Positions 2,314 to 13,228 of a stretch of DNA of 64,000 nucleotides are shown piece by piece (positions within the stretch are counted from its first letter, which is position 1; the number at the start of each line of letters is the position of its first letter). The notes under the pieces were generated by a model. It was not told the origin of the DNA, did no database searches, and saw nothing but the letters and a program-made list of their open reading frames with translations. Both the position numbers and the translations under genes were made by a program. Source of the stretch: Bacteroidales bacterium UBA4070 (GTDB taxonomy: Bacteria > Bacteroidota > Bacteroidia > Bacteroidales > VadinHA17); the NCBI GenBank assembly GCA_002383485.1, contig DFYY01000012.1:37717-101716 (forward strand), read 5' to 3'.

Positions 2314-2940
2314 ATGAAAAGTGTTGACCCGGATAATGACGGTAACATGCTGCCGCTGGTTGAGGAGTTCTACTCCGTGCAGGGCGAGGGATGCAATACA
2401 GGCAAGGCAGCCTATTTTATAAGGGTTGGAGGGTGCGATATCTGCTGCAGCTGGTGTGACACGAAATATGCCTGGGATGCTGCGCTGCATCCGCTGGTAC
2501 CGGTGGAATCAATAGTGTCAAATGTGATTGCATCCGGAGCAGACTCTGTAGTGGTTACCGGCGGAGAGCCCCTGATGTGGAACATGGATCCACTCTGCAG
2601 GCAGCTCAGGACAGAAGAAATAAAAACCTTTCTGGAAACATCAGGCGCCTATCCTCTTACAGGCTCCTGGGACTGGATCACCCTCTCGCCAAAGAAGGGA
2701 TCGCCGCCGCTGCCCGGGATATGGCCACTGGCTGATGAACTGAAGGTTGTAATCCAGTATGGCATTGATTTTGAGGATGCCGAGGTATACAGGCAGAAAA
2801 CGGGACCCGGATGCCAGCTGCTGCTGCAGCCGGAATGGAGCAGGTACAGTGAGATAATAGGCGTGATAACTGAGTATGTTAAAAAGCATCCTGAATGGAG
2901 AGTCTCGCTGCAGGCACATAAATTTATGCATATTCCCTGA
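2314..2940 (+). CDS. queE: 7-carboxy-7-deazaguanine synthase (radical SAM)
   Basis: 208 aa. EEFYSVQGEG, the radical-SAM cluster CDICCSWCDTKY and a C-terminal SLQAHKFMHIP are QueE hallmarks. Confidence 0.85.
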   Translation: MKSVDPDNDGNMLPLVEEFYSVQGEGCNTGKAAYFIRVGGCDICCSWCDTKYAWDAALHPLVPVESIVSNVIASGADSVVVTGGEPLMWNMDPLCRQLRTEEIKTFLETSGAYPLTGSWDWITLSPKKGSPPLPGIWPLADELKVVIQYGIDFEDAEVYRQKTGPGCQLLLQPEWSRYSEIIGVITEYVKKHPEWRVSLQAHKFMHIP

Positions 2941-4896
2941 ATGGGTTTAAGAACTACAATATTTACAATGGCTCTGACCATGCTGCTGACCCAGTTAACA
3001 AGCGGCCAGAATTTTCATACCCGCTCCAACAGGGCTCTCAAATACTATCATCAGGGCAAGCGGGATTATGAATTCCTCTATTATGACCGTGCTGAAAGTA
3101 ATCTTAAACTGGCAGTGGAAGAGGACAACCGCTTCTATGAGGCTCACATAATGCTTGGCCAGCTCTATACTGATACAGGCGACTGGGAGAAGTCGGTGAC
3201 ACATTACCGCTCTGCAGTAAGAATAGATTCTCTCTACTTTACACCGGCTCTCTTCAGCCTGGGCAGGGCTGAGCTCAGGACGGGGAGATATTTCGATGCG
3301 CTGAACCACCTTGAGGCTTACCTCAAACAACCGGGCGTGACGCCAAAGCTCAGGGTTGAGGCGGAGAAGATGATAGCAAGCTGTCGTTTCGCCCTGACTT
3401 TCCCTTCGTCGCTCTATGAGATGGAGCCTGTAAGCGCCGGCGATTCGGTAAATACCGTTCTGGATGAGTACTGGCCATCAGTCACAGGTGACGGACAGCA
3501 ACTGATCTTCACTCGTGAGGTAAAGCGGGCAGCAGGTTATGGCCGCGATTACAATCGTGACAGGCAGGAAGACTTTTACGTCAGCAGGTGGGTGGCTGAC
3601 GGTTACTGGGGCACGGCCCGTAATGCCGGGGCACCGCTGAACACATCAGGGAACGAAGGGGCACAGTCTATCTCCTCTGACGGCAGATATATGTTCTTCA
3701 CTGCCTGCGACCGGAATGACGGACAGGGCAGGTGTGACATCTACTTTTCTTCAAATGACGGCAACCGGTGGTCACCCGGATTGAATCTCGGCCCGCCTGT
3801 CAACTCTGCATACTGGGAGTCCCAGCCTTCGATCAGCCCAAACGGAAATATGCTCTTTTTTGTCAGCAACAGACCTGGTGGCATGGGAGGCATGGATATA
3901 TGGTATTCTACCCGCGGCAGCGACGGAAAGTGGAGTAAGCCTGTTAACCCGGGTAAGGCCATCAATACCACGGGCGACGAATTTTCGCCCTTTATCTACT
4001 TCAATGGGCGGACACTTTATTTTTCATCCAATGGACGTGAATCCTTCGGGGGACATGACATTTATGTCACTACCCTGGCGCGTGACTCTGGCTGGACAAC
4101 GCCGGAGAATCTCGGACCTCCGGTGAATACTCCGGCGGATGAAACCGGTCTTGTCATAGAATCATCAGGCAGAAGAGCCTATTTCTCCTCAGTCCGGAAT
4201 AAGGATAAAGGCAAGGACATCTATTATCTTGATCTTCCGGAATCGGTTCAGCCTGAGCCTGTTTCATATTTCAGGGGTAAGGTGATTGATAAAGCGTCGG
4301 GCCAGCCTATCACAGCCAGGTATGAGCTTTCAGACCTGACCAGGAGGGCCGGGGTAATAAACTCGGTCACAGACAGCAGGGGAGAGTTCTTTGTATGCCT
4401 GCCCCAGGGAAGTAGCTACGGACTGAATGTAACAGCCCCGGGTTACATGATATTCTCCGAGAACTTTGACTTCGTCGAAGGTTATACATCCTCGGAACCT
4501 TACCTCAAGACAATCGCCCTGAACAGAGTAAGAAAAGGCGAATTCATGAGGATGTACAATGTGTTTTATGATACCGACTCATGGGAGTTGCTGGAGTCAT
4601 CACTGCCGGAGCTGACACAGCTGCTTGAATTTCTGAATGTCAACCCGACAGTTGTCATAGAGATTGGTGGTCACACTGATTCGGACGGAAGTGAAGAACA
4701 TAACCAGCGGCTTTCAGAAAGAAGAGCAGATTCGGTAAGGGAATTTCTGATAAAGAGGGGCATTGACGGTGAGAGGATCTTTTCTCATGGTTATGGCGAG
4801 ACCACTCCTGTGGCTGACAATATAACACCAGCCGGCAGGAAGCTCAACAGACGGACTGAAATCACGATCCTGTCTGAAGGTACAATCAGGAAATAA
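2941..4896 (+). CDS. OmpA-family protein with N-terminal TPR and TolB-like (PD40/WD40-like) beta-propeller repeats
   Basis: 651 aa with a signal peptide. Repeated motifs of the type E..PS.SPDG..L.F.S.R and GG.DIY. C-terminal OmpA motif GHTDSDGSEEHNQRLSERRADSV. Confidence 0.85.
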   Translation: MGLRTTIFTMALTMLLTQLTSGQNFHTRSNRALKYYHQGKRDYEFLYYDRAESNLKLAVEEDNRFYEAHIMLGQLYTDTGDWEKSVTHYRSAVRIDSLYFTPALFSLGRAELRTGRYFDALNHLEAYLKQPGVTPKLRVEAEKMIASCRFALTFPSSLYEMEPVSAGDSVNTVLDEYWPSVTGDGQQLIFTREVKRAAGYGRDYNRDRQEDFYVSRWVADGYWGTARNAGAPLNTSGNEGAQSISSDGRYMFFTACDRNDGQGRCDIYFSSNDGNRWSPGLNLGPPVNSAYWESQPSISPNGNMLFFVSNRPGGMGGMDIWYSTRGSDGKWSKPVNPGKAINTTGDEFSPFIYFNGRTLYFSSNGRESFGGHDIYVTTLARDSGWTTPENLGPPVNTPADETGLVIESSGRRAYFSSVRNKDKGKDIYYLDLPESVQPEPVSYFRGKVIDKASGQPITARYELSDLTRRAGVINSVTDSRGEFFVCLPQGSSYGLNVTAPGYMIFSENFDFVEGYTSSEPYLKTIALNRVRKGEFMRMYNVFYDTDSWELLESSLPELTQLLEFLNVNPTVVIEIGGHTDSDGSEEHNQRLSERRADSVREFLIKRGIDGERIFSHGYGETTPVADNITPAGRKLNRRTEITILSEGTIRK

Positions 4897-5009: not shown

Positions 5010-5825
5010 TCAGATTGCTATCTTATTCTCCGAAGAGGAACCGGTAAGTATTTTCAAGCCGGGACTTTCCTTTGCTGGTAATGAAACAAATACGGATGTA
5101 CCTCCTGCTTCGTTTGTCTCAACCCTGATAGAGCCATCCATTGCAAGAATAAGATTTCTGGCCAGGATTAAATTCATAGCGGAATAGGTATCCTGACTTT
5201 CGGAATGTTGGATCTCAGGATTGTCGGAAAGCAGCAGATCACTGCTTCTGGGGTAACCCTGGCCAGAATCTTTTACGTAAAATGTTGTCTTCTCATCACT
5301 GTATGTGCACCCCACCTTTATAAACCCTGAAAAAGTGTGGTCAAGTGCATCACGGAAGAGATTACTGACTATTCTTGTTGTCCGTGCAGCATCTATCTTC
5401 AGCATAAGCCTGTCAGGCAGGTTGTCTTCCTGTATCAGAACGACATTGTCGCGTCCCTTTTTCCTCATGAAAACCCTGAAATCAGAGGTAAGTGACTCGA
5501 AAAGTCTTGTGATGTCGGTCTCACGCAGGCTCTCCCTTGTTGCTCCGGTCTCGAGGACCGCCGTGTCAAAGAAATTCTCAAACAACCCGACCAGCTGTTC
5601 GCATGAGGAGATGATCTGCTCTGAGAACTCTCTTTTTTCATTGTCACTGAATCTCTCGTTGTTCATAAGATAAGAGAAGGCTACAATGGAGTTCATCTGA
5701 GTTCTTACCTCATGTGATACGCCTGCAAGTATATTTGGTTTATTGATCATTTTGTTCAGTTTTTCCTGCCCTGTCGCCACTGCCGAACCCATCTCATGCC
5801 AATTATTGCGAAGAATCTCGAACAT
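5010..5825 (-). CDS. soluble histidine-kinase-like protein (HisKA + HATPase_c, atypical ATP-lid)
   Basis: 271 aa with no TM or sensor domain. H-box SHEVRTQMNSI and G1-like DSGQG are present. The N-box reads NLFRDAL and the G2 box (GxGLGL) is not recognisable. It lies 18 nt downstream of the anti-sigma-like gene. Confidence 0.7.
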   Translation of the reverse strand: MFEILRNNWHEMGSAVATGQEKLNKMINKPNILAGVSHEVRTQMNSIVAFSYLMNNERFSDNEKREFSEQIISSCEQLVGLFENFFDTAVLETGATRESLRETDITRLFESLTSDFRVFMRKKGRDNVVLIQEDNLPDRLMLKIDAARTTRIVSNLFRDALDHTFSGFIKVGCTYSDEKTTFYVKDSGQGYPRSSDLLLSDNPEIQHSESQDTYSAMNLILARNLILAMDGSIRVETNEAGGTSVFVSLPAKESPGLKILTGSSSENKIAI

Positions 5826-5843: not shown

Positions 5844-6590
5844 TTATTTTAATTTGCGTGACAGCCTGGCAGCCTGCCTCTTGTACCTGCTTTCCGATGC
5901 AGCTATCGACCTGAACTGGCTCAAGGCTTTTTCCCGGTTGCCGGTCATCATGTAGCAGAGTCCCAGATACCATTCCGCATCTTCAAGATAAAGGTTGTCA
6001 TTGTGCTCTATGACGCGTGAGAAGGAACCGCTGGCTACCGGGTAATTCTTAACCTCCATGTTGGCCATACCGTGCATGAAGACCGATTCCATATCATTCC
6101 GGTCCGAGTTGATAATCTGTTCAAGGAATATAATGGCCTTCTCATATTCCTTTGCGGAGTAGGAGGCTATGGCGTTTTCCATCAATGCATTTCCTTCACC
6201 TGATGCTGACCTCACAGCCCCCGGGGATTCATACCTTGTATAACTGGAGGCATAGAGCTGCTCAGGCGATGTCCCGGGCTTCAGCTCCAGGTATATGGCG
6301 CTGGAAATAAGTGCTATAAGGGCAACGGCAGCAGCATACCTGGCACCCTTTACTATTATACCGCGCAGAGGTACGGCAGCACGTTTTTTCCTGCCTATCA
6401 CGCTGAGCTTGCTCCTCAGTTCCATTACCTGCCTGTTTGCAAGGATCTCATCGGTCCTTCGCCTTAGATTCACTTCCCTTGCCAGCTCCGGATCCTTCGC
6501 CATCTCGCCTGCAAGCCATTCACGGCCTGCTCTGTCAGCCCGGCCTCCAAGCCAGTCTTCAATGGCATTGTTGACATTCTTTGTCTTCAT
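5844..6590 (-). CDS. single-pass membrane TPR protein, putative anti-sigma factor
   Basis: 248 aa. Charged N-terminal domain of about 80 aa (AIEDWLGG...DPELAREV), one TM segment (YAAAVALIALISSAIYL) and a C-terminal TPR-like region of about 145 aa. Confidence 0.55.
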   Translation of the reverse strand: MKTKNVNNAIEDWLGGRADRAGREWLAGEMAKDPELAREVNLRRRTDEILANRQVMELRSKLSVIGRKKRAAVPLRGIIVKGARYAAAVALIALISSAIYLELKPGTSPEQLYASSYTRYESPGAVRSASGEGNALMENAIASYSAKEYEKAIIFLEQIINSDRNDMESVFMHGMANMEVKNYPVASGSFSRVIEHNDNLYLEDAEWYLGLCYMMTGNREKALSQFRSIAASESRYKRQAARLSRKLK

Positions 6591-6778
6591 CTTGATATTA
6601 TTATTTCACACTTATAAAAAACTACCCGTCAGTTAGTTTATTACAATCAGCCCGTTACCTTCAGGGCGCCTTACTATGGGGCGCATACGCTCCCGGATGA
6701 ACGGCCGGCTCTGCCTCAGGCAGATCCTTCCACGTCAATATATATACCTGCCGGCTCACACCGGCACAGTCATTTGAT

Positions 6779-6916
6779 TCAGATCTCGATTATCACCGGA
6801 GGCCTGGTAGGTTCAATACCCGTATTGCTTCTGCCGCCGTTGCCGCCGCGAATATTTATCATTTCCTCGTTTGAAAGAACAAATTCAGTGAAGTTTTCGA
6901 TTGTCAGGGTTTTCAT
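6779..6916 (-). CDS. double-glycine (GG) leader peptide precursor, 45 aa
   Basis: Manual reverse-complement translation gives MKTLTIENFTEFVLSNEEMINIRGG / NGGRSNTGIEPTRPPVIIEI, then stop. LSNEEMINIRGG fits the LSxxELxxIxGG leader consensus. The gene is too short for the supplied ORF track. Confidence 0.7.
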   Translation of the reverse strand: MKTLTIENFTEFVLSNEEMINIRGGNGGRSNTGIEPTRPPVIIEI

Positions 6917-7127
6917 GTTTTCAAGAATTAAATTGTTATGTCAGGATTTAATTGGTGTTTATACCGTACATGTCAGAAGATGTCGTTTTGTGACACGAAA
7001 AAATCAACTTTTTTTCAAAAAAAATGCAACATACTGAAATACAGGTCTGTATAAAATGTAAAATATTGCTGTCACTTTAACGGATTGTTTTATACTTTTA
7101 CCGACGGAAGAGAGAAGAACCATTTTG

Positions 7128-10100
7128 ATGAGCCTGGGGGCACGTATAGTATCCATTCCTTTCCTGCTTTTTGCTGTTTTATGCGGATTACCTGCAATAG
7201 CGCTCGGAACCTGGCATCCGGGTAAAGAGGTTATTGAAGGAACAGTAATAGGGGAGAAGAGACTGAGGGAGTTGACGGACTCACTCTCTGTTCTGTTGGA
7301 GACGGGATCTGACGCGCCGGGCAAGGCTGAGATGGCATCAGAGATAGAAGCCATTATTTCCGGCGACGTTATTAAGGATACCCTTCTGCTGTCTGATGCT
7401 TATTATTTTTTGGGTGTTCAGCATTATCAGTCGAACCGTTTCGCTAAAGCCTTTGACTGTTTCAGTATCTCAGTATTTTACAGGGAGCGACTCTCGCTGT
7501 CAGACAGGAGATATGCCAACGGGCTGGCAAATATGGCTGTGTCACTTTTAAAGACAGGTGATTACATGCGTGCATCAGTGCTGGGGACAAAGGCACTTGA
7601 GGCAAAGCGGGCAATCTCGGGCAGTGACTCATCAGGTCTGGTGACCAATTACGTTAACCTGGCCAGTATCAACCTTGAGTTGAATGAAACAGACAGCGCC
7701 ATTGAAAGGGCAGAGGCCGGGCTGAGGATTGCCAAGCTCTACCCCGATGCGGTACCGGTGAAGGTAATAGCCGACCTGTATCATGTAATAGGACTCGGTC
7801 TTTACCGTAGCCAGGAATACAACAAATCCCTGGCTTACTGTGGGGAGGCTCTCAGGATGTACGAAAAGGATCCGGCTGCCAGCGTTGACTCGAGGATATT
7901 GATGCACAATACCATGGCCCAGGTTCACCGACGGATGGGTCAGCCCCGGGAGGCTGAGGCACAATTTCTCAAGGGCCTTGCAATCAGGGATAGCCAGAAT
8001 ACCCAGGATAAATTTCTGCTTTACATAAACTATGCGGGTTTTCTGATCCGCAACGGACGTGCAGCCGAGGGAGAGCAGGTCCTGAAGTCGGGGCTGGACC
8101 AGGTAAGCAATGCATTCGGTCCGGATAGCCGTGAATATTACATGATGCTTGCCTCGGCCGCGGAACTGGTATACGATGACCCTGAAGACAGGGACCGGGC
8201 CATAGCCATTTATGATAAGTGTCTTGAATATGTTCGCCAGAATCCCTGGGATCATTCAATGGGAAAATTTATCCTTGCCAGGTACGCCAGGGAACTTTCA
8301 GATGCCGGGAGGTATGCCAGGGTTATTGATCTGACGGATTACCTTGCTGCTGACACCATGGCGGCAGATGCCGTCTCTGAGGAAGACTTCTTCCTGCTGG
8401 GATTGAGGTATGAGGCTTTGAATACGCTTGCCGGCAGAAGAAACAACACTGATCTTCTCAGGCAGGCTGTAGCCACCGGACGAAGGATCACTTCCCTGTA
8501 TGACCGGCAAAGGCTTGAGATGAGTGAGGAGGATAGCAGGACCAGCCTAAGCTCTTCGGCCAGGGGTATCTATACCGGCTTAATTGAGAACTATGCTGCT
8601 CTCTATGAGAGCAATGGTGACCGTGAATCGCTGGAGGGTCTGTTCGAATACGCCGAGAGGAGTAAGGTTGCCGGTTTCCTGGCATCAATGAGGGAACTGA
8701 ACGCTGCCCGGTTCTCGCTGCCGGAGGAGCTGACTGAGCTTGAGGCAGGTATCCGCAGTGAGATAGGGTTATACAGGGAACTGATGACCACGGAAAGGCT
8801 TAAAGCAGTGCCTGACACCCAGCGGCTGGCCACCTGGGAGAGCGTAACCTTCAGGCTGCATCGCTCCCGAGACTCGCTTGTGAACATCTTTGAACAGGAT
8901 TATCCGGCTTACTACAACCTGAAATTCAGGAACGAAGTAACCCCGCTGCGTGATGTCGGCAAAGTCATCGGACAGAGGGCAAACCTTCTAAGCTATGTTC
9001 TTACTCAGGACAGGCTTTACATCTTTGTTGCCAACCACAGGAGGAGCGAGGTGATAAAAAAGGATATTGACTCCTCCTTCTTCACATTGCTTACACGTTT
9101 TCGCGAGATGGTGTCAACACCACCTGACCCAAGCGGTTCACGTGCCCCGTTCAACGAATACATGGATCTGGCTTACAGCCTTTACCGTATACTCCTTGAG
9201 CCGGCTGAACCTTTTCTTGCCGGCGATAAGATAGTCATCTCTCCGGATAACCTCCTTTCCTACCTGCCCTTCGAAACGCTTGTAACCGAAGAGTTCCGCA
9301 GTCCCGGTCTGCTCTACCGCGAGGCACCCTTCGCCCTTAAGAAATACCGGTTTTCCTATATCTACAGCGTGACCCTTTCGTCAGAGACGTTACAGCGAAG
9401 CAGAAGCCTGAGCAACAGGCTGATAGCCTTTGCTCCGTCCTATGAGGGAGTTGAGATAGATGATTCCCTCCTTGTATCATGGCCATCCCTCAGGGGAGAG
9501 ATACATGAGCTGCCCTACGCCATTATGGAGGCTGAAGATGTTGTTAATCAGTGCGGAGGGCGGGCCTTTACAGGGGCTGAAGCCAGTGAGGGAGCCTTTA
9601 AGCGCGAAGTAAAGAACTACAAGATCATACACCTGGCCATGCACACGCTGGTTGATGACAGCAGACCTGCATTCTCCAGGATGCTCTTCACTCCAAGCGG
9701 TGGTGACACCGAGGACGGCATGCTTAATACCTATGAGGTATACAGCCTGCCGATCAAGGCAATGATGGTGGTACTCAGCTCCTGCAATACCGGGTCAGGG
9801 ATGCTGGTGAACGGGGAGGGCATACTGAGCCTGGCACGCGGTTTCCTTTATGCCGGAAGCCGTTCGGCAGTGATGTCAATGTGGGCTGTGGATGACATAT
9901 CTGCCTCGGAGGTAATTCACTCCTTCTACAGGAATCTGAGAAGCGGGCAGACCAAAAGCTCTGCACTCCGCAACGCCAGGCTGAGCTACCTGGAAGATGC
10001 ACTTCAGAGAAGGTCTCATCCCTACTACTGGTCTGCGCTTGTGATATACGGCGACGATACGCCGCTGTGGTATAACAGGGTAAAACTCTACACAGGGATC

Positions 10101-10163
10101 CTCTTCTTTATGCTTGTGGCGACGCTGCTATTTGCATTGGTCTACAAAGGACCGAGGTCCTGA
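7128..10163 (+). CDS. TPR repeat + CHAT domain (caspase-like) protein with N-terminal signal peptide and C-terminal TM anchor
   Basis: About 1011 aa counted from ATG 7128 (a TTG lies at 7125). Hydrophobic N-terminus ends in AIALG. There is a long TPR region. CHAT motifs are IIHLAMHTLVD (His), VVLSSCNTGSG (Cys) and HPYYWSALVIYGD. The C-terminal TM is GILFFMLVATLLFALVY followed by KGPRS. Confidence 0.85.
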   Translation: MSLGARIVSIPFLLFAVLCGLPAIALGTWHPGKEVIEGTVIGEKRLRELTDSLSVLLETGSDAPGKAEMASEIEAIISGDVIKDTLLLSDAYYFLGVQHYQSNRFAKAFDCFSISVFYRERLSLSDRRYANGLANMAVSLLKTGDYMRASVLGTKALEAKRAISGSDSSGLVTNYVNLASINLELNETDSAIERAEAGLRIAKLYPDAVPVKVIADLYHVIGLGLYRSQEYNKSLAYCGEALRMYEKDPAASVDSRILMHNTMAQVHRRMGQPREAEAQFLKGLAIRDSQNTQDKFLLYINYAGFLIRNGRAAEGEQVLKSGLDQVSNAFGPDSREYYMMLASAAELVYDDPEDRDRAIAIYDKCLEYVRQNPWDHSMGKFILARYARELSDAGRYARVIDLTDYLAADTMAADAVSEEDFFLLGLRYEALNTLAGRRNNTDLLRQAVATGRRITSLYDRQRLEMSEEDSRTSLSSSARGIYTGLIENYAALYESNGDRESLEGLFEYAERSKVAGFLASMRELNAARFSLPEELTELEAGIRSEIGLYRELMTTERLKAVPDTQRLATWESVTFRLHRSRDSLVNIFEQDYPAYYNLKFRNEVTPLRDVGKVIGQRANLLSYVLTQDRLYIFVANHRRSEVIKKDIDSSFFTLLTRFREMVSTPPDPSGSRAPFNEYMDLAYSLYRILLEPAEPFLAGDKIVISPDNLLSYLPFETLVTEEFRSPGLLYREAPFALKKYRFSYIYSVTLSSETLQRSRSLSNRLIAFAPSYEGVEIDDSLLVSWPSLRGEIHELPYAIMEAEDVVNQCGGRAFTGAEASEGAFKREVKNYKIIHLAMHTLVDDSRPAFSRMLFTPSGGDTEDGMLNTYEVYSLPIKAMMVVLSSCNTGSGMLVNGEGILSLARGFLYAGSRSAVMSMWAVDDISASEVIHSFYRNLRSGQTKSSALRNARLSYLEDALQRRSHPYYWSALVIYGDDTPLWYNRVKLYTGILFFMLVATLLFALVYKGPRS

Positions 10164-10708
10164 TACTCCGTATCTGTTTTTATGATCTCCATCAATGCTT
10201 CCTTGCAGAGGTATTTTTTTCTTCTGGCGTAATCTTCATTCTTAAAACCCATCCTGCGTGCAATCTCCTCATAGGAAAGACCCTCTCCGAAAAGGGTCAG
10301 TATCACCTGACAATCCTCTCCCAGCAGGGCATAGGAGCGGGTGACTATCTGCTCCAGCAGGGCACTGTTTGCCTCTTCTGCTTCAGCATTGTCTTCCGGG
10401 TCAGCCGTGATAGACACCAGCCTTGAACGGTATCTGAGCTGGCTGTTCCATACGTTGCGTGCCACACCGAAGAAATATCCCTTCAGGTCTGTGGTAAGCC
10501 TGAACCCGTCACCTGTGACCTGTTTGTAGATTATGACCACCGTTTCCTGGAGCACCTCATGTGCATCATCATCCGATCCGCTGTTTTTGCTGACGTGATC
10601 ACGGATCATTTCGAAATATGCTTCGTAGAGGTAGGTAAGAATCCTGTTGTCCTGCCTCCTGATACCATCAACGATGTCAGCGTCCGAAAACTTTCTGAAT
10701 AATCCCAA
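10142..10708 (-). CDS. sigma-70 family (ECF-like) RNA polymerase sigma factor
   Basis: 188 aa with a region-2-like N-terminal half, an acidic linker and a region-4 HTH (LSYEEIARRMGFKNEDYARRKKYLCKEAL). The only upstream in-frame start is TTG at 10708. The 3' end overlaps the CHAT gene by 22 nt. Confidence 0.75.
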   Translation of the reverse strand: MGLFRKFSDADIVDGIRRQDNRILTYLYEAYFEMIRDHVSKNSGSDDDAHEVLQETVVIIYKQVTGDGFRLTTDLKGYFFGVARNVWNSQLRYRSRLVSITADPEDNAEAEEANSALLEQIVTRSYALLGEDCQVILTLFGEGLSYEEIARRMGFKNEDYARRKKYLCKEALMEIIKTDTEYQDLGPL

Positions 10709-10725: not shown

Positions 10726-10733
10726 CAAATATA
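10726..10733 (-). promoter_or_regulatory. candidate Bacteroidota -7 promoter box (TATATTTG) for the sigma factor gene
   Basis: The minus strand reads TATATTTG (TAnnTTTG consensus) 18 nt upstream of the TTG start. Confidence 0.35.
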
Positions 10734-10849
10734 CAATTTCCGCAATCGATTACTGAAAAAAGGAGTTTGGCACAAATTCAACAGCCCTGCCTCAAGCAGG
10801 TAAATAATTGGATATATTTACGGGTTCAAACTTCCACTCTGCAGGTTCA

Positions 10850-13036
10850 ATGGCATATCCTTTCGTAAGGCAATATGATGCAATGGATTGCGGGCCGGCA
10901 TGCATAAGCATGGTAGCCCTGAGTCACGGCAAGCGCCTGTCCCTTGAGACAATCCGGAAGAGAGCATGGATCACCCGTGAGGGAGTCTCTTTACTCGGAC
11001 TGAAAACGGCTGCCGAGAGCATCGGGTTCAGGGCGGCAGGAGTGAAGATACCTTTCAGCAGGCTTGTAAATGATGCTCCGATGCCATGCATTGTGCACTG
11101 GCGGCAGAACCACTTTATTGTGGTTAACAGGGTGAGCAGCAAGACTGTATGGGTGAGTGATCCGGCCATTGGCAGGCTGAAGATGACCCATGACGAGTTT
11201 CTGGAGGGATGGTTGCCTGGCGAGGGTGGTGAAGAACCCACCGGGCTTGCACTGCTGCTGGAGCCGGGCCCCACTTTTGCCGCGTTGCAGGATGACCCTC
11301 CGCCAAAGGGGGGATTTGAATTCCTGTTACCCTATCTGAAACCATACCACCGGCAGATAGTGCTGCTTATTCTCGGATTGATACTGTCGGGTGGCATCCA
11401 GCTTCTTTTTCCCTTCATGACCCAGGCCATCATTGACAGGGGGATTGCTGGCCGTGACATAAGTTTCATATGGCTCATTCTTGCAGGTCAGCTGGCCCTG
11501 ACACTTGGCAGGCTGGCTGTCGAGTTCACCAGGGGATGGCTCATTCTTCACGCAGGATCGCGACTGAACATCACAATCGTTTCGGATTTCCTGGCGAGGC
11601 TGATGGGTCTGCCCATTGCATACTTTGACACGAAGCTTAACGGAGACATTCTGCAACGCATTGATGACAACAGCAGGATAGAGAGTTACCTGACATCTTC
11701 GAGCCTTGCCATTCTCTTCTCGCTCTTCAACTTCATTGTCTTCGGAGTGGTTCTGGGCATATACAGTCTTAAGGTTCTGCTTGTTTTCCTGGCCGGCACT
11801 GCCCTTTACGTACTGTATGTGACTCTCTTCATGCCGGCCAGGGAGAGGCTTGACAACATCCGTTTCATGCAGATGGCTGAGGCTGGCAACCGGATGATAA
11901 ACATAGTGAACGGCATGCAGGAGATAAAACTGGCAGGCAATGAAGCCTCCAACAGGAGGGAGTGGGAATCGATGCAGAAAGAGATCTATGCCACCCGTGT
12001 GCGCGGACTCCGTATCATGCAGTTTCAGACTGCGGGAGGAACGCTTATTCACGAATCAGTAAACATCATTATCACGGTTATATCGGCCACGCTGGTTATC
12101 AACGGTTCACTGACCCTCGGCATGATGCTTGCCGTGCAGTTCATAACGGGGCAGCTTAACGGTCCGGTATCACAGATTGTCAGCTTCATGAGAGCTACCC
12201 AGGATGCACAGATAAGCCTCGGAAGACTGGCGGAGGTGCATGCCATGGAACCGGAGGAGGCGGAGGGGAGGAATGGAGAGTCTGAGATGCCTGAAAAAGC
12301 AGATATTGAGATAAGTAACCTTTCTTTCCAGTATGAGGGTCCCGGCTCTCCCTGGGTTCTGCGGAACCTGGACCTGGTCATCCCGGCCGGGAAGATCACT
12401 GCCGTGGTGGGTGAGAGTGGTTCGGGTAAGACCACGCTCCTGAAGATGCTGCTTGGATACTATCCTCCTGCCGGGGGATGCATAACAGTGGGGGGAAGGC
12501 AACTTGACGGAATAAGCATCTCTTCGCTGCGGCGAAACACAGGCGCCGTGATGCAGGAAGGATACATCTTTCCGGATACGATACTCGGTAACATTGCTCC
12601 GGGTGAGGATAACCCGGATATTGACAGTGTGGCCGAGGCTGTGAAAGTGGCCAGCCTGAAACAGCTTCTGGACGAACTCCCTTCAGGCCTGCAGACCCGT
12701 GTGGGACAGGGCGGCCACGGACTCAGCCAGGGACAGCGGCAACGCATTCTCATAGCCAGGGTGGTTTACAAGCAGCCCTCCCTGCTGCTTCTCGATGAAG
12801 CCACCAGTGCCCTTGATGCCTCAAATGAAAGAATGATTGTTGAGAATCTTGCCGGGTTCTATGCCGGCAGGACGGCGGTCATCGTGGCTCACAGGCTGAG
12901 CACGGTACGGCATGCTGACAGAATCGTGGTGCTTGAAGGCGGAAGAGTGACAGAGTCCGGTTCCCACGCCGAACTCGCTGCGCTTAAGGGGACCTATTAC
13001 AGGCTCATAAAAGATCAGCTTGAGCTTGGACGCTGA
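10850..13036 (+). CDS. peptidase C39 domain-containing ABC transporter (bacteriocin/peptide exporter type)
   Basis: C39 residues are intact: QYDAMDCGPACI (Cys), QNHFIVV (His), VSDPA (Asp). Six-TM ABC membrane domain. Walker A GESGSGKTT, signature LSQGQRQR, Walker B LLLLDEATSALD. ATG 10850 is preferred over TTG 10808. Confidence 0.9.
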   Translation: MAYPFVRQYDAMDCGPACISMVALSHGKRLSLETIRKRAWITREGVSLLGLKTAAESIGFRAAGVKIPFSRLVNDAPMPCIVHWRQNHFIVVNRVSSKTVWVSDPAIGRLKMTHDEFLEGWLPGEGGEEPTGLALLLEPGPTFAALQDDPPPKGGFEFLLPYLKPYHRQIVLLILGLILSGGIQLLFPFMTQAIIDRGIAGRDISFIWLILAGQLALTLGRLAVEFTRGWLILHAGSRLNITIVSDFLARLMGLPIAYFDTKLNGDILQRIDDNSRIESYLTSSSLAILFSLFNFIVFGVVLGIYSLKVLLVFLAGTALYVLYVTLFMPARERLDNIRFMQMAEAGNRMINIVNGMQEIKLAGNEASNRREWESMQKEIYATRVRGLRIMQFQTAGGTLIHESVNIIITVISATLVINGSLTLGMMLAVQFITGQLNGPVSQIVSFMRATQDAQISLGRLAEVHAMEPEEAEGRNGESEMPEKADIEISNLSFQYEGPGSPWVLRNLDLVIPAGKITAVVGESGSGKTTLLKMLLGYYPPAGGCITVGGRQLDGISISSLRRNTGAVMQEGYIFPDTILGNIAPGEDNPDIDSVAEAVKVASLKQLLDELPSGLQTRVGQGGHGLSQGQRQRILIARVVYKQPSLLLLDEATSALDASNERMIVENLAGFYAGRTAVIVAHRLSTVRHADRIVVLEGGRVTESGSHAELAALKGTYYRLIKDQLELGR

Positions 13037-13045
13037 CTTTTTGCC

Positions 13046-13228
13046 TTACTTCTTCCCGGAATATGGTTCGTAATCATCAGGCTGATCCCTGAGGCCGCCT
13101 CTCTTTCCAAAACCAGTACCCGGTTTTCCGGTTAAACCGTCATTTTTTTTCTTCGCGTACTTGCGATAGAGTGAAAAGCCGGCGAAGACAAAAGCTGCCG
13201 CCAGGATTATGTAGTCTTTGTTTTCCAT
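13046..13228 (-). CDS. small membrane protein, 60 aa (hypothetical)
   Basis: Internal ATG of the 109-aa track ORF. Translation is MENKDYIILAAAFVFAGFSLY followed by a Lys/Gly-rich tail. One TM segment. Confidence 0.4.
   Translation of the reverse strand: MENKDYIILAAAFVFAGFSLYRKYAKKKNDGLTGKPGTGFGKRGGLRDQPDDYEPYSGKK

Follow-up and report, generated by a model that had tools for sequence, protein, structure and literature searches.

A conserved peptide gene with a double-glycine leader

The window analysed here is a 64,000-nucleotide stretch of contig DFYY01000012.1 (positions 37,717 to 101,716) from Bacteroidales bacterium UBA4070, and its minus strand encodes at 6779-6916 a 45-residue precursor peptide with a double-glycine (GG) leader. 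This is a genuine conserved gene under purifying selection. It lies in a module with a sigma factor of the extracytoplasmic function (ECF) type, an anti-sigma-like protein that joins a transmembrane (TM) helix to a tetratricopeptide repeat (TPR) domain (TM-TPR), a TPR protein with a caspase-like CHAT protease domain (TPR-CHAT), a soluble histidine kinase and a dedicated ECF-type promoter. This context, absent from the initial annotation of the peptide gene, is decisive for its interpretation. The gene and its two parts are:

6779-6916, minus strand: precursor peptide gene, 45 codons plus stop
6842-6916, minus strand: leader, codons 1-25
6782-6841, minus strand: core, codons 26-45

The reverse complement of 6779-6916 reads from ATG to TGA and yields MKTLTIENFTEFVLSNEEMINIRGGNGGRSNTGIEPTRPPVIIEI, which splits into the leader MKTLTIENFTEFVLSNEEMINIRGG and the core NGGRSNTGIEPTRPPVIIEI; the open reading frame (ORF) and translation first given for it were reproduced exactly. 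Because an in-frame TAA sits just upstream and bounds the frame, MKTL is taken as the true start, and the longer starts ('MYGIE...') of some database entries are blocked in the window by this same stop. Among about 5.8 billion proteins, homologues with 57-98% identity form 53 clusters, nearly all of them 43-45 aa long. When aligned, they share a near-invariant leader (MKTL..EFVLSNEEMINVRGG), after which come NG, some 8 residues of variable spacer and a strongly conserved C-terminus, which reads PT[RK]PP[VI][IV]IE[ILVF] in 48 of 50 intact family members. Length variants of 43, 44, 45 and 48 aa exist and every indel is in frame. Across 20 distinct 45-codon alleles, where synonymous sites are near saturation, dN/dS is 0.15 in the leader, 0.30 in the spacer and only 0.055 over the last ten codons (PTRPPVIIEI), for an overall value of 0.19. 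Frame conservation and a bias toward synonymous changes, which the initial annotation had proposed to look for, are thus both evident. The gene had also been described as unlisted, which is true of an ORF track with a 60-aa cutoff but not of public collections: these hold the exact peptide, and the close homologues MDX9728063.1 and MHC1731520.1 from Bacteroidales metagenome-assembled genomes (MAGs) are labelled 'hypothetical protein'. No second GG-leader ORF was found in the whole 64-kb window, either by a six-frame regular expression or by tblastn with the leader.

Three further sequences combine an identical or near-identical leader with a differing core. P0046, on a 649-nt ENA contig, has the core DGGAGIAGGAVFGMGHECAPC, which contains a GG and a Cys. 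Two were rejected as alternative cores: P0051 is an artefact, its source contig (locus L008) being full of fragmented genes, and P0052 is a frameshift whose tail is the +1 frame of the window sequence.

Leader, core and the peptides of relatives

The 12 residues that precede the predicted cut, LSNEEMINIRGG, have Leu at -12, Ser at -11, Glu at -8, Met at -7, Ile at -4 and Gly at -2 and -1, and the match to the double-glycine consensus LSxxELxxIxGG claimed for these positions holds. The leader has the hallmarks of its class: it falls within about 15-30 aa, ends in GG, is hydrophobic at -4, -7 and -12 and is acidic at -8. An RGG occurs in all 50 intact homologues, and the GG is invariant over 68 diverse relatives, whereas the second GG is found in only 19 of the 50 intact family members. 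The cut is therefore placed after Gly25, and the shorter 17-aa product once considered, which would arise at the second GG, is not retained. The resulting window core is acidic and 20 residues long, and consists of the variable spacer NGGRSNTGIE and the conserved PTRPPVIIEI. It is Cys-free and Pro-rich, as had been said of it, and the calculated monoisotopic mass of the unmodified 20-mer is 2119.14 Da; for PTRPPVIIEI alone it is 1133.68 Da.

The 45-aa peptide has no Pfam match. A likeness to the TIGR04149 precursor family had been suggested, and a search of the NCBIfam profiles supports this in part: the leader does resemble that family (E 1.3e-3), but the score of 18.6 bits is under the cutoff of 25 and the match spans residues 1-31 only, so the peptide is not a member. 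The same model matches 24 of the 68 diverse relatives at E<0.1, the best of them at 4.3e-6.

Over 82 distinct relative peptides the leader has a median length of 29 aa and the core one of 18.5 aa (range 9-33). These cores are 20% Pro and carry a mean net charge of -2; PP occurs in 71 of the 82, Cys in 5, and 58 end in Ile, Leu, Val or Phe. Typical examples are EGDPIIKPVQPPIII and DAEPILKPSVPPVKI, with ..PTRPPVIIEI in the window's clade. The conserved C-terminal part of the core opens with a conserved [D/E/N]-P, and the peptide classes coincide with phylogeny. A separate arrangement is seen in loci L127, L090 and L070, where tandem arrays of 2-3 GG-leader ORFs of another type (MKTIEILNTKELLQVRGG, then GDD...) lie upstream of TM-TPR homologues.

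The genes around the peptide

The module around the peptide gene comprises the following features:

5010-5825, minus strand: soluble histidine kinase, 271 aa, with HisKA and HATPase_c domains, no TM helix and no sensor domain
5844-6590, minus strand: TM-TPR membrane protein, 248 aa, anti-sigma-like, with an N-domain, one TM helix and a TPR domain
6746-6770, minus strand: stem-loop 9 nt past the peptide stop (-14 kcal/mol, z = -2.2)
6970-6994, minus strand: promoter-like motif of ECF type, GTCAC-N15-GACAT (GTCACAAAACGACATCTTCTGACAT), about 78 nt before the peptide ATG
7125-10163, plus strand, divergent from the peptide gene: TPR-CHAT protease, 1012 aa (PF12770 CHAT at 4.4e-53, plus TPR_12)
10142-10708, minus strand: ECF-type sigma-70 factor, 188 aa (TIGR02937, 47.7 bits against a cutoff of 42.9)
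10726-10733, minus strand: -7 box TATATTTG (TAnnTTTG), 25 nt before the start codon of the sigma gene
10808-13036, plus strand, divergent from the sigma gene: ATP-binding cassette (ABC) exporter with a C39 peptidase domain, or PCAT (Peptidase_C39 at 1.9e-34)

The peptide, TM-TPR and kinase genes follow each other in this order on one strand. The PCAT lies 3.9 kb from the peptide gene and aligns over its full length with PCAT1 and ComA (ComA E ~1e-89). Its catalytic residues are intact, both in the Q-x5-C motif (VRQYDAMDCG) and in H-x15-D (NHF...VSDP), which bears out the linked C39 exporter with Cys, His and Asp in place that had been noticed at the outset; it is the presumed leader peptidase and exporter of the peptide. 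A 60-aa single-TM ORF at 13046-13228 on the minus strand (MENKDYIILAAAFVFAGFSLYRKY...) is convergent with the PCAT gene; it has no family match and is called as a gene of 62-64 aa in the syntenic loci L001, L003 and L005.

The N-terminus of the TPR-CHAT protein is signal-like and its C-terminus is a TM anchor (TM segments predicted at residues 1-30 and 986-1010), so the bulk of the protein should be periplasmic. Its catalytic dyad, His840/Cys887, is invariant wherever a tblastn match covers it (His in 53 loci, Cys in 52). The sigma factor has no regions other than sigma-2 and sigma-4, passes the ECF model and also matches NF041236 weakly (E 1.7e-4). At their 3' ends the convergent CHAT and sigma genes share 22 nt (10142-10163), as they do in the gene calls of related loci (for example at 6724-6745 of L001), which could allow interference by convergent transcription.

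For the TM-TPR protein the predicted topology is a basic N-domain (residues 1-75) in the cytoplasm, a TM helix that spans about residues 80-103 and a TPR domain (about residues 105-248) in the periplasm; its AlphaFold model is of only moderate confidence (pLDDT 62.8), the N-domain included. The sigma and TM-TPR genes are not adjacent in the window. An anti-sigma-like function is suggested by the gene order in 20 related loci (see below), by zf-HC2 matches in 4 of 54 family members and by the positive charge, read from the sequence, of the flank N-terminal to the TM helix. As for the soluble kinase, its C-terminus is -IAI in 42 of 65 loci, distant ones included, and its G2 box is apparently degenerate (YSAMNLIL vs the usual GxGLGL); the -IAI end might be a degron or a docking tail, or the kinase might be non-canonical.

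The module contains no lanthipeptide (LanM), YcaO, SPASM, ATP-grasp or methyltransferase gene. The initial annotation saw no maturase nearby, and this stands for SPASM, lanthipeptide and YcaO enzymes, but a radical S-adenosylmethionine (radical-SAM) gene does exist at 2314-2940. Its product is without SPASM, matches only QueE models and is missing from module copies in other genomic contexts; on the last two grounds we rejected it as a maturase. Together with a PorE-like TPR/PD40/OmpA gene it flanks the module (2314-4896, plus strand).

Two architectures among relatives

Contigs that carry close peptide homologues are fully syntenic with the window, housekeeping flanks included, and for this reason say little about functional linkage on their own. 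More distant relatives were sought with the TM-TPR protein, whose profile found 206 full-length relatives at E<1e-30 (1.84 billion representatives searched); these share the N-terminal motif IERYLxGEMxxxExxWFEKEL, the TM helix and the TPR domain. Some relatives of about 500 aa (such as P0183, P0187 and P0193) have the TM-TPR unit in their second half and 3-4 matched stretches, and look duplicated or fused. A degenerate DNA pattern of the most conserved TM-TPR motif, scanned over GTDB species genomes, gave at least 120 loci, mostly as 8-kb contig windows. Architectures were counted over 125 non-redundant loci among the matches listed; the true number is larger. All scanned blocks come from Bacteroidota and almost all from MAGs, Labilibaculum manganireducens being the only cultured organism among the loci listed. 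The sample names of the carriers, which are uncultured Bacteroidales, point to digesters, fens, sediments and similar habitats. One locus, L114, bears the title 'uncultured Chloroflexia bacterium', and its peptide, TM-TPR, kinase and CHAT genes form a complete module of Bacteroidales type; binning or labelling has probably gone wrong here.

Two gene orders emerge. A kinase gene directly follows the TM-TPR gene in 81 of the 125 loci (kinase-type) and a sigma gene directly precedes it in 20 (sigma-type), which is the classical arrangement of a sigma factor and its anti-sigma factor; no locus has both. The peptide goes strictly with the kinase: all kinase-type loci with enough upstream sequence (67/67) have a GG-leader ORF in the 800 nt before the TM-TPR gene, and no sigma-type locus does (0/17). 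In blocks that extend far enough, kinase-type loci contain CHAT (34/34), sigma (25/25) and, upstream of the sigma gene, PCAT (16/20) genes as well. The four PCAT exceptions form a rearranged subtype, in a genomic context other than that of the window's clade, where the PCAT gene comes after the kinase gene and is followed by an HlyD-family gene. CHAT is also present in the peptide-less sigma-type loci. Labilibaculum manganireducens (locus L066) has its module in this sigma-type form. Overall, the parts stay together over two gene orders and at least two genomic contexts, down to 27% TM-TPR identity.

Promoters and RNA elements

The GTCAC-N15-GACAT motif belongs to an extended conserved element, TTTTTTCGTGTCACAAA-N11-CTGACATGTA, which spans 6965-6998. 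Each of 59 fetched loci has a single copy of it, and this copy invariably precedes the peptide gene; in loci that are more distant, GGGTAACGTTT-N12-GGAATAAAG is found in the same geometry. A generic form, [GA]T[ACT]AC-N15-16-GA[ACT][AT][TA], stands upstream of the peptide in 65/80 loci, with 0.03 expected per 120 nt, and 14 of 19 sigma-type loci have the same motif before the sigma gene. Since ECF sigma factors typically autoregulate, a motif found both before the sigma gene and before the peptide is the expected signature of the cognate sigma's promoter, and the sigma factor of the locus would be the one to read the peptide promoter. The sigma gene of kinase-type loci is preceded by a different element: TAnnTTTG, which we take to be the Bacteroidetes housekeeping -7 box, lies 25-30 nt before the sigma start in 22/24 of these loci, plus the window (0.04 expected per 100 nt).

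Past the peptide gene, related loci have a hairpin at the same position as the stem-loop of the window, with a different sequence, and the first 60 nt fold with at most -8 kcal/mol in 49/82. It is likely a partial terminator or a stabiliser that sets the peptide gene apart from the genes downstream. The 5' leader of the peptide mRNA is predicted to be unstructured. It carries, about 30-40 nt before the ATG (at about 6930-6945 in the window, minus strand), the element (A)ACCCTGA(A/T)T, a near-repeat of the coding start ATGAAAACCCTGA (6899-6916, minus strand). This leader element is found in 42/78 loci and both copies in 26/78; it could be the site of a translational or RNA regulator.

Discussion

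We propose that the gene makes a short Pro-rich exported peptide, and that this peptide is the signal of a circuit made of sigma factor, anti-sigma and caspase-like protease in uncultured Bacteroidales; judged from the comparative sequence evidence, we give this proposal about even chances. The C39 exporter would cut the precursor after Gly25 and export a 20-residue, Cys-free, acidic and Pro-rich peptide, the constrained portion of which would be the C-terminal PTRPPVIIEI. The ECF-type promoter is expected to drive the peptide, TM-TPR and kinase genes, peptide first, in a transcript that would begin a few nt after GACATGTA (at about 6960) and end at the hairpin, with weaker read-through downstream. 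The sigma factor itself would be made constitutively from its housekeeping-type promoter and presumably be held inactive by the TM-TPR protein. Export would bring the peptide to the compartment predicted for both TPR domains and the CHAT active site, where a periplasmic TPR domain, that of the anti-sigma-like protein or that of TPR-CHAT, most likely binds its C-terminus. Binding would trigger the CHAT-dependent (site-1-like) inactivation of the anti-sigma, presumably by cleavage, and the freed sigma would transcribe more peptide, anti-sigma and kinase, combining autoinduction with a built-in negative feedback. A signal-like role had already been preferred to that of a classical bacteriocin or modified peptide, and it is indeed the better fit.

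Several observations weigh against this proposal. The C-terminal decapeptide barely varies between species, unlike the pherotype diversity of Gram-positive pheromones. Part of the co-occurrence reflects vertical inheritance, because the GTCAC...GACAT clade keeps one old chromosomal site, always beside porE-like and queE genes (33/42 loci), down to about 29-33% TM-TPR identity. The kinase has neither a membrane nor a sensor domain that would tie it to the peptide; no response regulator was found among ORFs of at least 180 aa in 1-22000 or among the called genes of related loci, shorter ORFs not having been run against domain models. The 64-kb window has neither an HlyD nor a TolC partner for the exporter, while an HlyD gene lies beside the PCAT gene in more distant relatives; here, export may end in the periplasm or employ unlinked partners. 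No further copies of the peptide promoter motif that would point to a wider regulon occur in the 64-kb window, no defence system was matched by PADLOC, which we count as a weak point, and neither the CHAT nor the TM-TPR protein has a sequence-level relationship to DdvA or Csx29, the TPR-CHAT-linked systems considered below.

The peptide could instead be only an output of the circuit, which would then sense some other envelope cue, the exported product being a short antimicrobial like class II microcins or bacteroidetocins, or acting on other cells. A GG leader, a PCAT and, in relatives, HlyD are indeed the export machinery of those peptides (PMC12219008). All that follows from the ECF-type promoter is that the sigma factor has the peptide among its outputs, and the sigma-type loci, which have no peptide, show that the sensing core can do without it. 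The mature part is nevertheless merely 9-33 aa long (median 18.5; 20 here), acidic and non-amphipathic, each locus has one copy of it, and no candidate immunity gene was recognised among the locus ORFs examined, small ORFs not having been screened for one. Toxins usually diversify, whereas the decapeptide has a dN/dS of 0.055 across species, and the strict co-occurrence of peptide and soluble kinase points to a regulatory rather than a toxic role; we consider an effector rather unlikely. Another idea is that the core becomes active only once an unrecognised enzyme has modified it or processed it further, as in a ribosomally synthesised and post-translationally modified peptide (RiPP), for example through trimming of the spacer or transpeptidation by CHAT, or through modification by the QueE-like radical-SAM protein. 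This would fit the TIGR04149-like RiPP leader, and a variable spacer before a conserved C-terminus that starts with [D/E/N]-P would suit a second processing site. A clan-CD CHAT enzyme with an intact dyad is at hand in the same compartment, and the radical-SAM gene is 4 kb off. This idea is improbable all the same, given the rarity of Cys in the cores (5/82), a module devoid of the maturase genes listed above and a radical-SAM protein that matches QueE models only and is missing from module copies elsewhere; the presence of CHAT in peptide-less sigma-type loci also means that it is no dedicated peptide maturase.

Another option inverts the sign of the signal: the peptide might be a periplasmic inhibitor or pseudosubstrate of CHAT, a negative regulator that keeps the protease off, much as separase, a TPR-CHAT relative, is controlled by its inhibitor securin (PMC11506125). 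Co-expression with the anti-sigma-like gene from a sigma-dependent promoter is a position suited to negative feedback, and an extended Pro-rich core suits a binder of an active site or a TPR groove. To judge by the hairpin past its gene, however, the peptide would be produced in greater amounts than the anti-sigma, as is more usual for a pheromone. The exporter, moreover, is ATP-driven and has an HlyD partner in relatives, which suggests that the peptide leaves the periplasm; we regard this option as very unlikely. Finally, that the ORF is spurious or part of a non-coding regulatory region is effectively refuted. The frame is very short, has no Pfam match and lacks an evident Shine-Dalgarno sequence, but Bacteroidetes generally do not rely on Shine-Dalgarno pairing, and the 53 clusters with a kept frame, the dN/dS of 0.19, the in-frame indels, the conserved promoter and the unstructured 5' leader all speak for a gene.

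If the signalling proposal is right, it has a bearing beyond this locus. Peptide-based cell-cell signalling is well known in Firmicutes, and we know of no described case in Bacteroidota. Full-text searches of the literature yielded no description of a GG peptide together with an ECF sigma, an anti-sigma-like TPR protein and TPR-CHAT in this phylum; exported peptides with GG leaders are known, but their coupling to a sigma/TPR-CHAT module and the peptide family with this Pro-rich C-terminal motif appear to be new. In its boldest form, which we hold only tentatively and regard as doubtful, the locus would be the first circuit in Bacteroidota to run on a peptide pheromone, and would gate an ECF sigma in a new way: a Pro-rich peptide C-terminus would be read by periplasmic TPRs and activate TPR-CHAT, which would remove the anti-sigma, while the sigma would amplify the peptide. 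How periplasmic TPR-CHAT proteases are switched on is an open question, and the trigger of DdvA is unknown; the peptide would be a ligand of the kind still missing for TPR-CHAT anti-sigma systems such as DdvA. The locus offers a candidate ligand (20 aa, or the C-terminal 10 aa), a promoter, a sigma, an anti-sigma-like protein and a protease, and is small enough to be reconstituted. As the module is widespread in uncultured Bacteroidales (at least 120 loci), it may control a common behaviour in these communities. ORFs of less than 60 aa before TM-TPR genes are systematically worth calling.

Comparison with known systems

Gram-positive GG pheromones (ComC/CSP-ComAB-ComDE, BlpC, PlnA) resemble the window system in several respects: a short precursor with an LSxxELxxIxGG leader, a linked C39 exporter homologous to ComA, a short linear mature peptide (predicted here to be unmodified) and a promoter apparently under the control of its own circuit, which is the logic of autoinduction. 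However, the host is Gram-negative, and neither a polytopic HPK10 receptor kinase nor a LytTR regulator was seen among the ORFs examined; in their place are an ECF sigma, TM-TPR, a periplasmic TPR-CHAT and a sensor-less kinase, and the active part of the peptide is near-invariant between species. Closer in phylum, the TIGR04149 (GG_sam_targ_CFB) precursors of Bacteroidota have the same leader type, but membership in this family of radical-SAM-modified RiPPs was rejected: the match of the window peptide is sub-cutoff and confined to the leader, its core is Cys-free and it has no radical-SAM/SPASM partner. Bacteroidetocins and class II microcins likewise place a GG-leader peptide near a PCAT in a Gram-negative host, with an HlyD partner in some relatives of the window locus; they differ in size (about 40-90 aa, against an acidic mature peptide of 20 aa here), and the window peptide sits in a sigma/anti-sigma module and shows the selection of a conserved ligand.

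On the receptor side, the RRNPP receptors (Rap, NprR, PlcR) also have TPR domains that bind short linear signalling peptides. These receptors are cytoplasmic, unlike the proteins predicted here, and read Sec-exported peptides that are re-imported, and the likeness is one of generic TPR only: NprR (4e-9) and Rap are among the generic matches to a profile built from the TPR part of the CHAT protein. Searched against PDB sequences, the CHAT protein had no match as a single sequence, and the 60 profile matches listed were all to TPR proteins, with no solved TPR-CHAT protein and none of DdvA, Csx29 or separase among them. ECF54, which has CHAT genes in its neighbourhood, was rejected as a counterpart: it is actinobacterial and unrelated.

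Csx29 cleaves Csx30 and so frees an RpoE-like sigma factor. This type III-E Craspase component, which is associated with Cas7-11 (PMC10028731), is a TPR-CHAT protease whose locus also holds an ECF-type sigma, as here; it is cytoplasmic and triggered by RNA, whereas the window system is predicted to be periplasmic, has a candidate peptide as its trigger and no cas genes. A further parallel in design is DdvA of M. xanthus, a membrane anti-sigma whose periplasmic TPR-CHAT has been proposed as site-1 protease and whose signal is unknown (PMC11506125). In the window TM-TPR and TPR-CHAT are two distinct proteins, the latter with a full and invariant CHAT dyad, and there are no CBASS or CRISPR genes. 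Like DdvA-DdvS, the locus joins an ECF sigma, a single-pass membrane protein and a periplasmic TPR-CHAT, and it also encodes a candidate for the signal.

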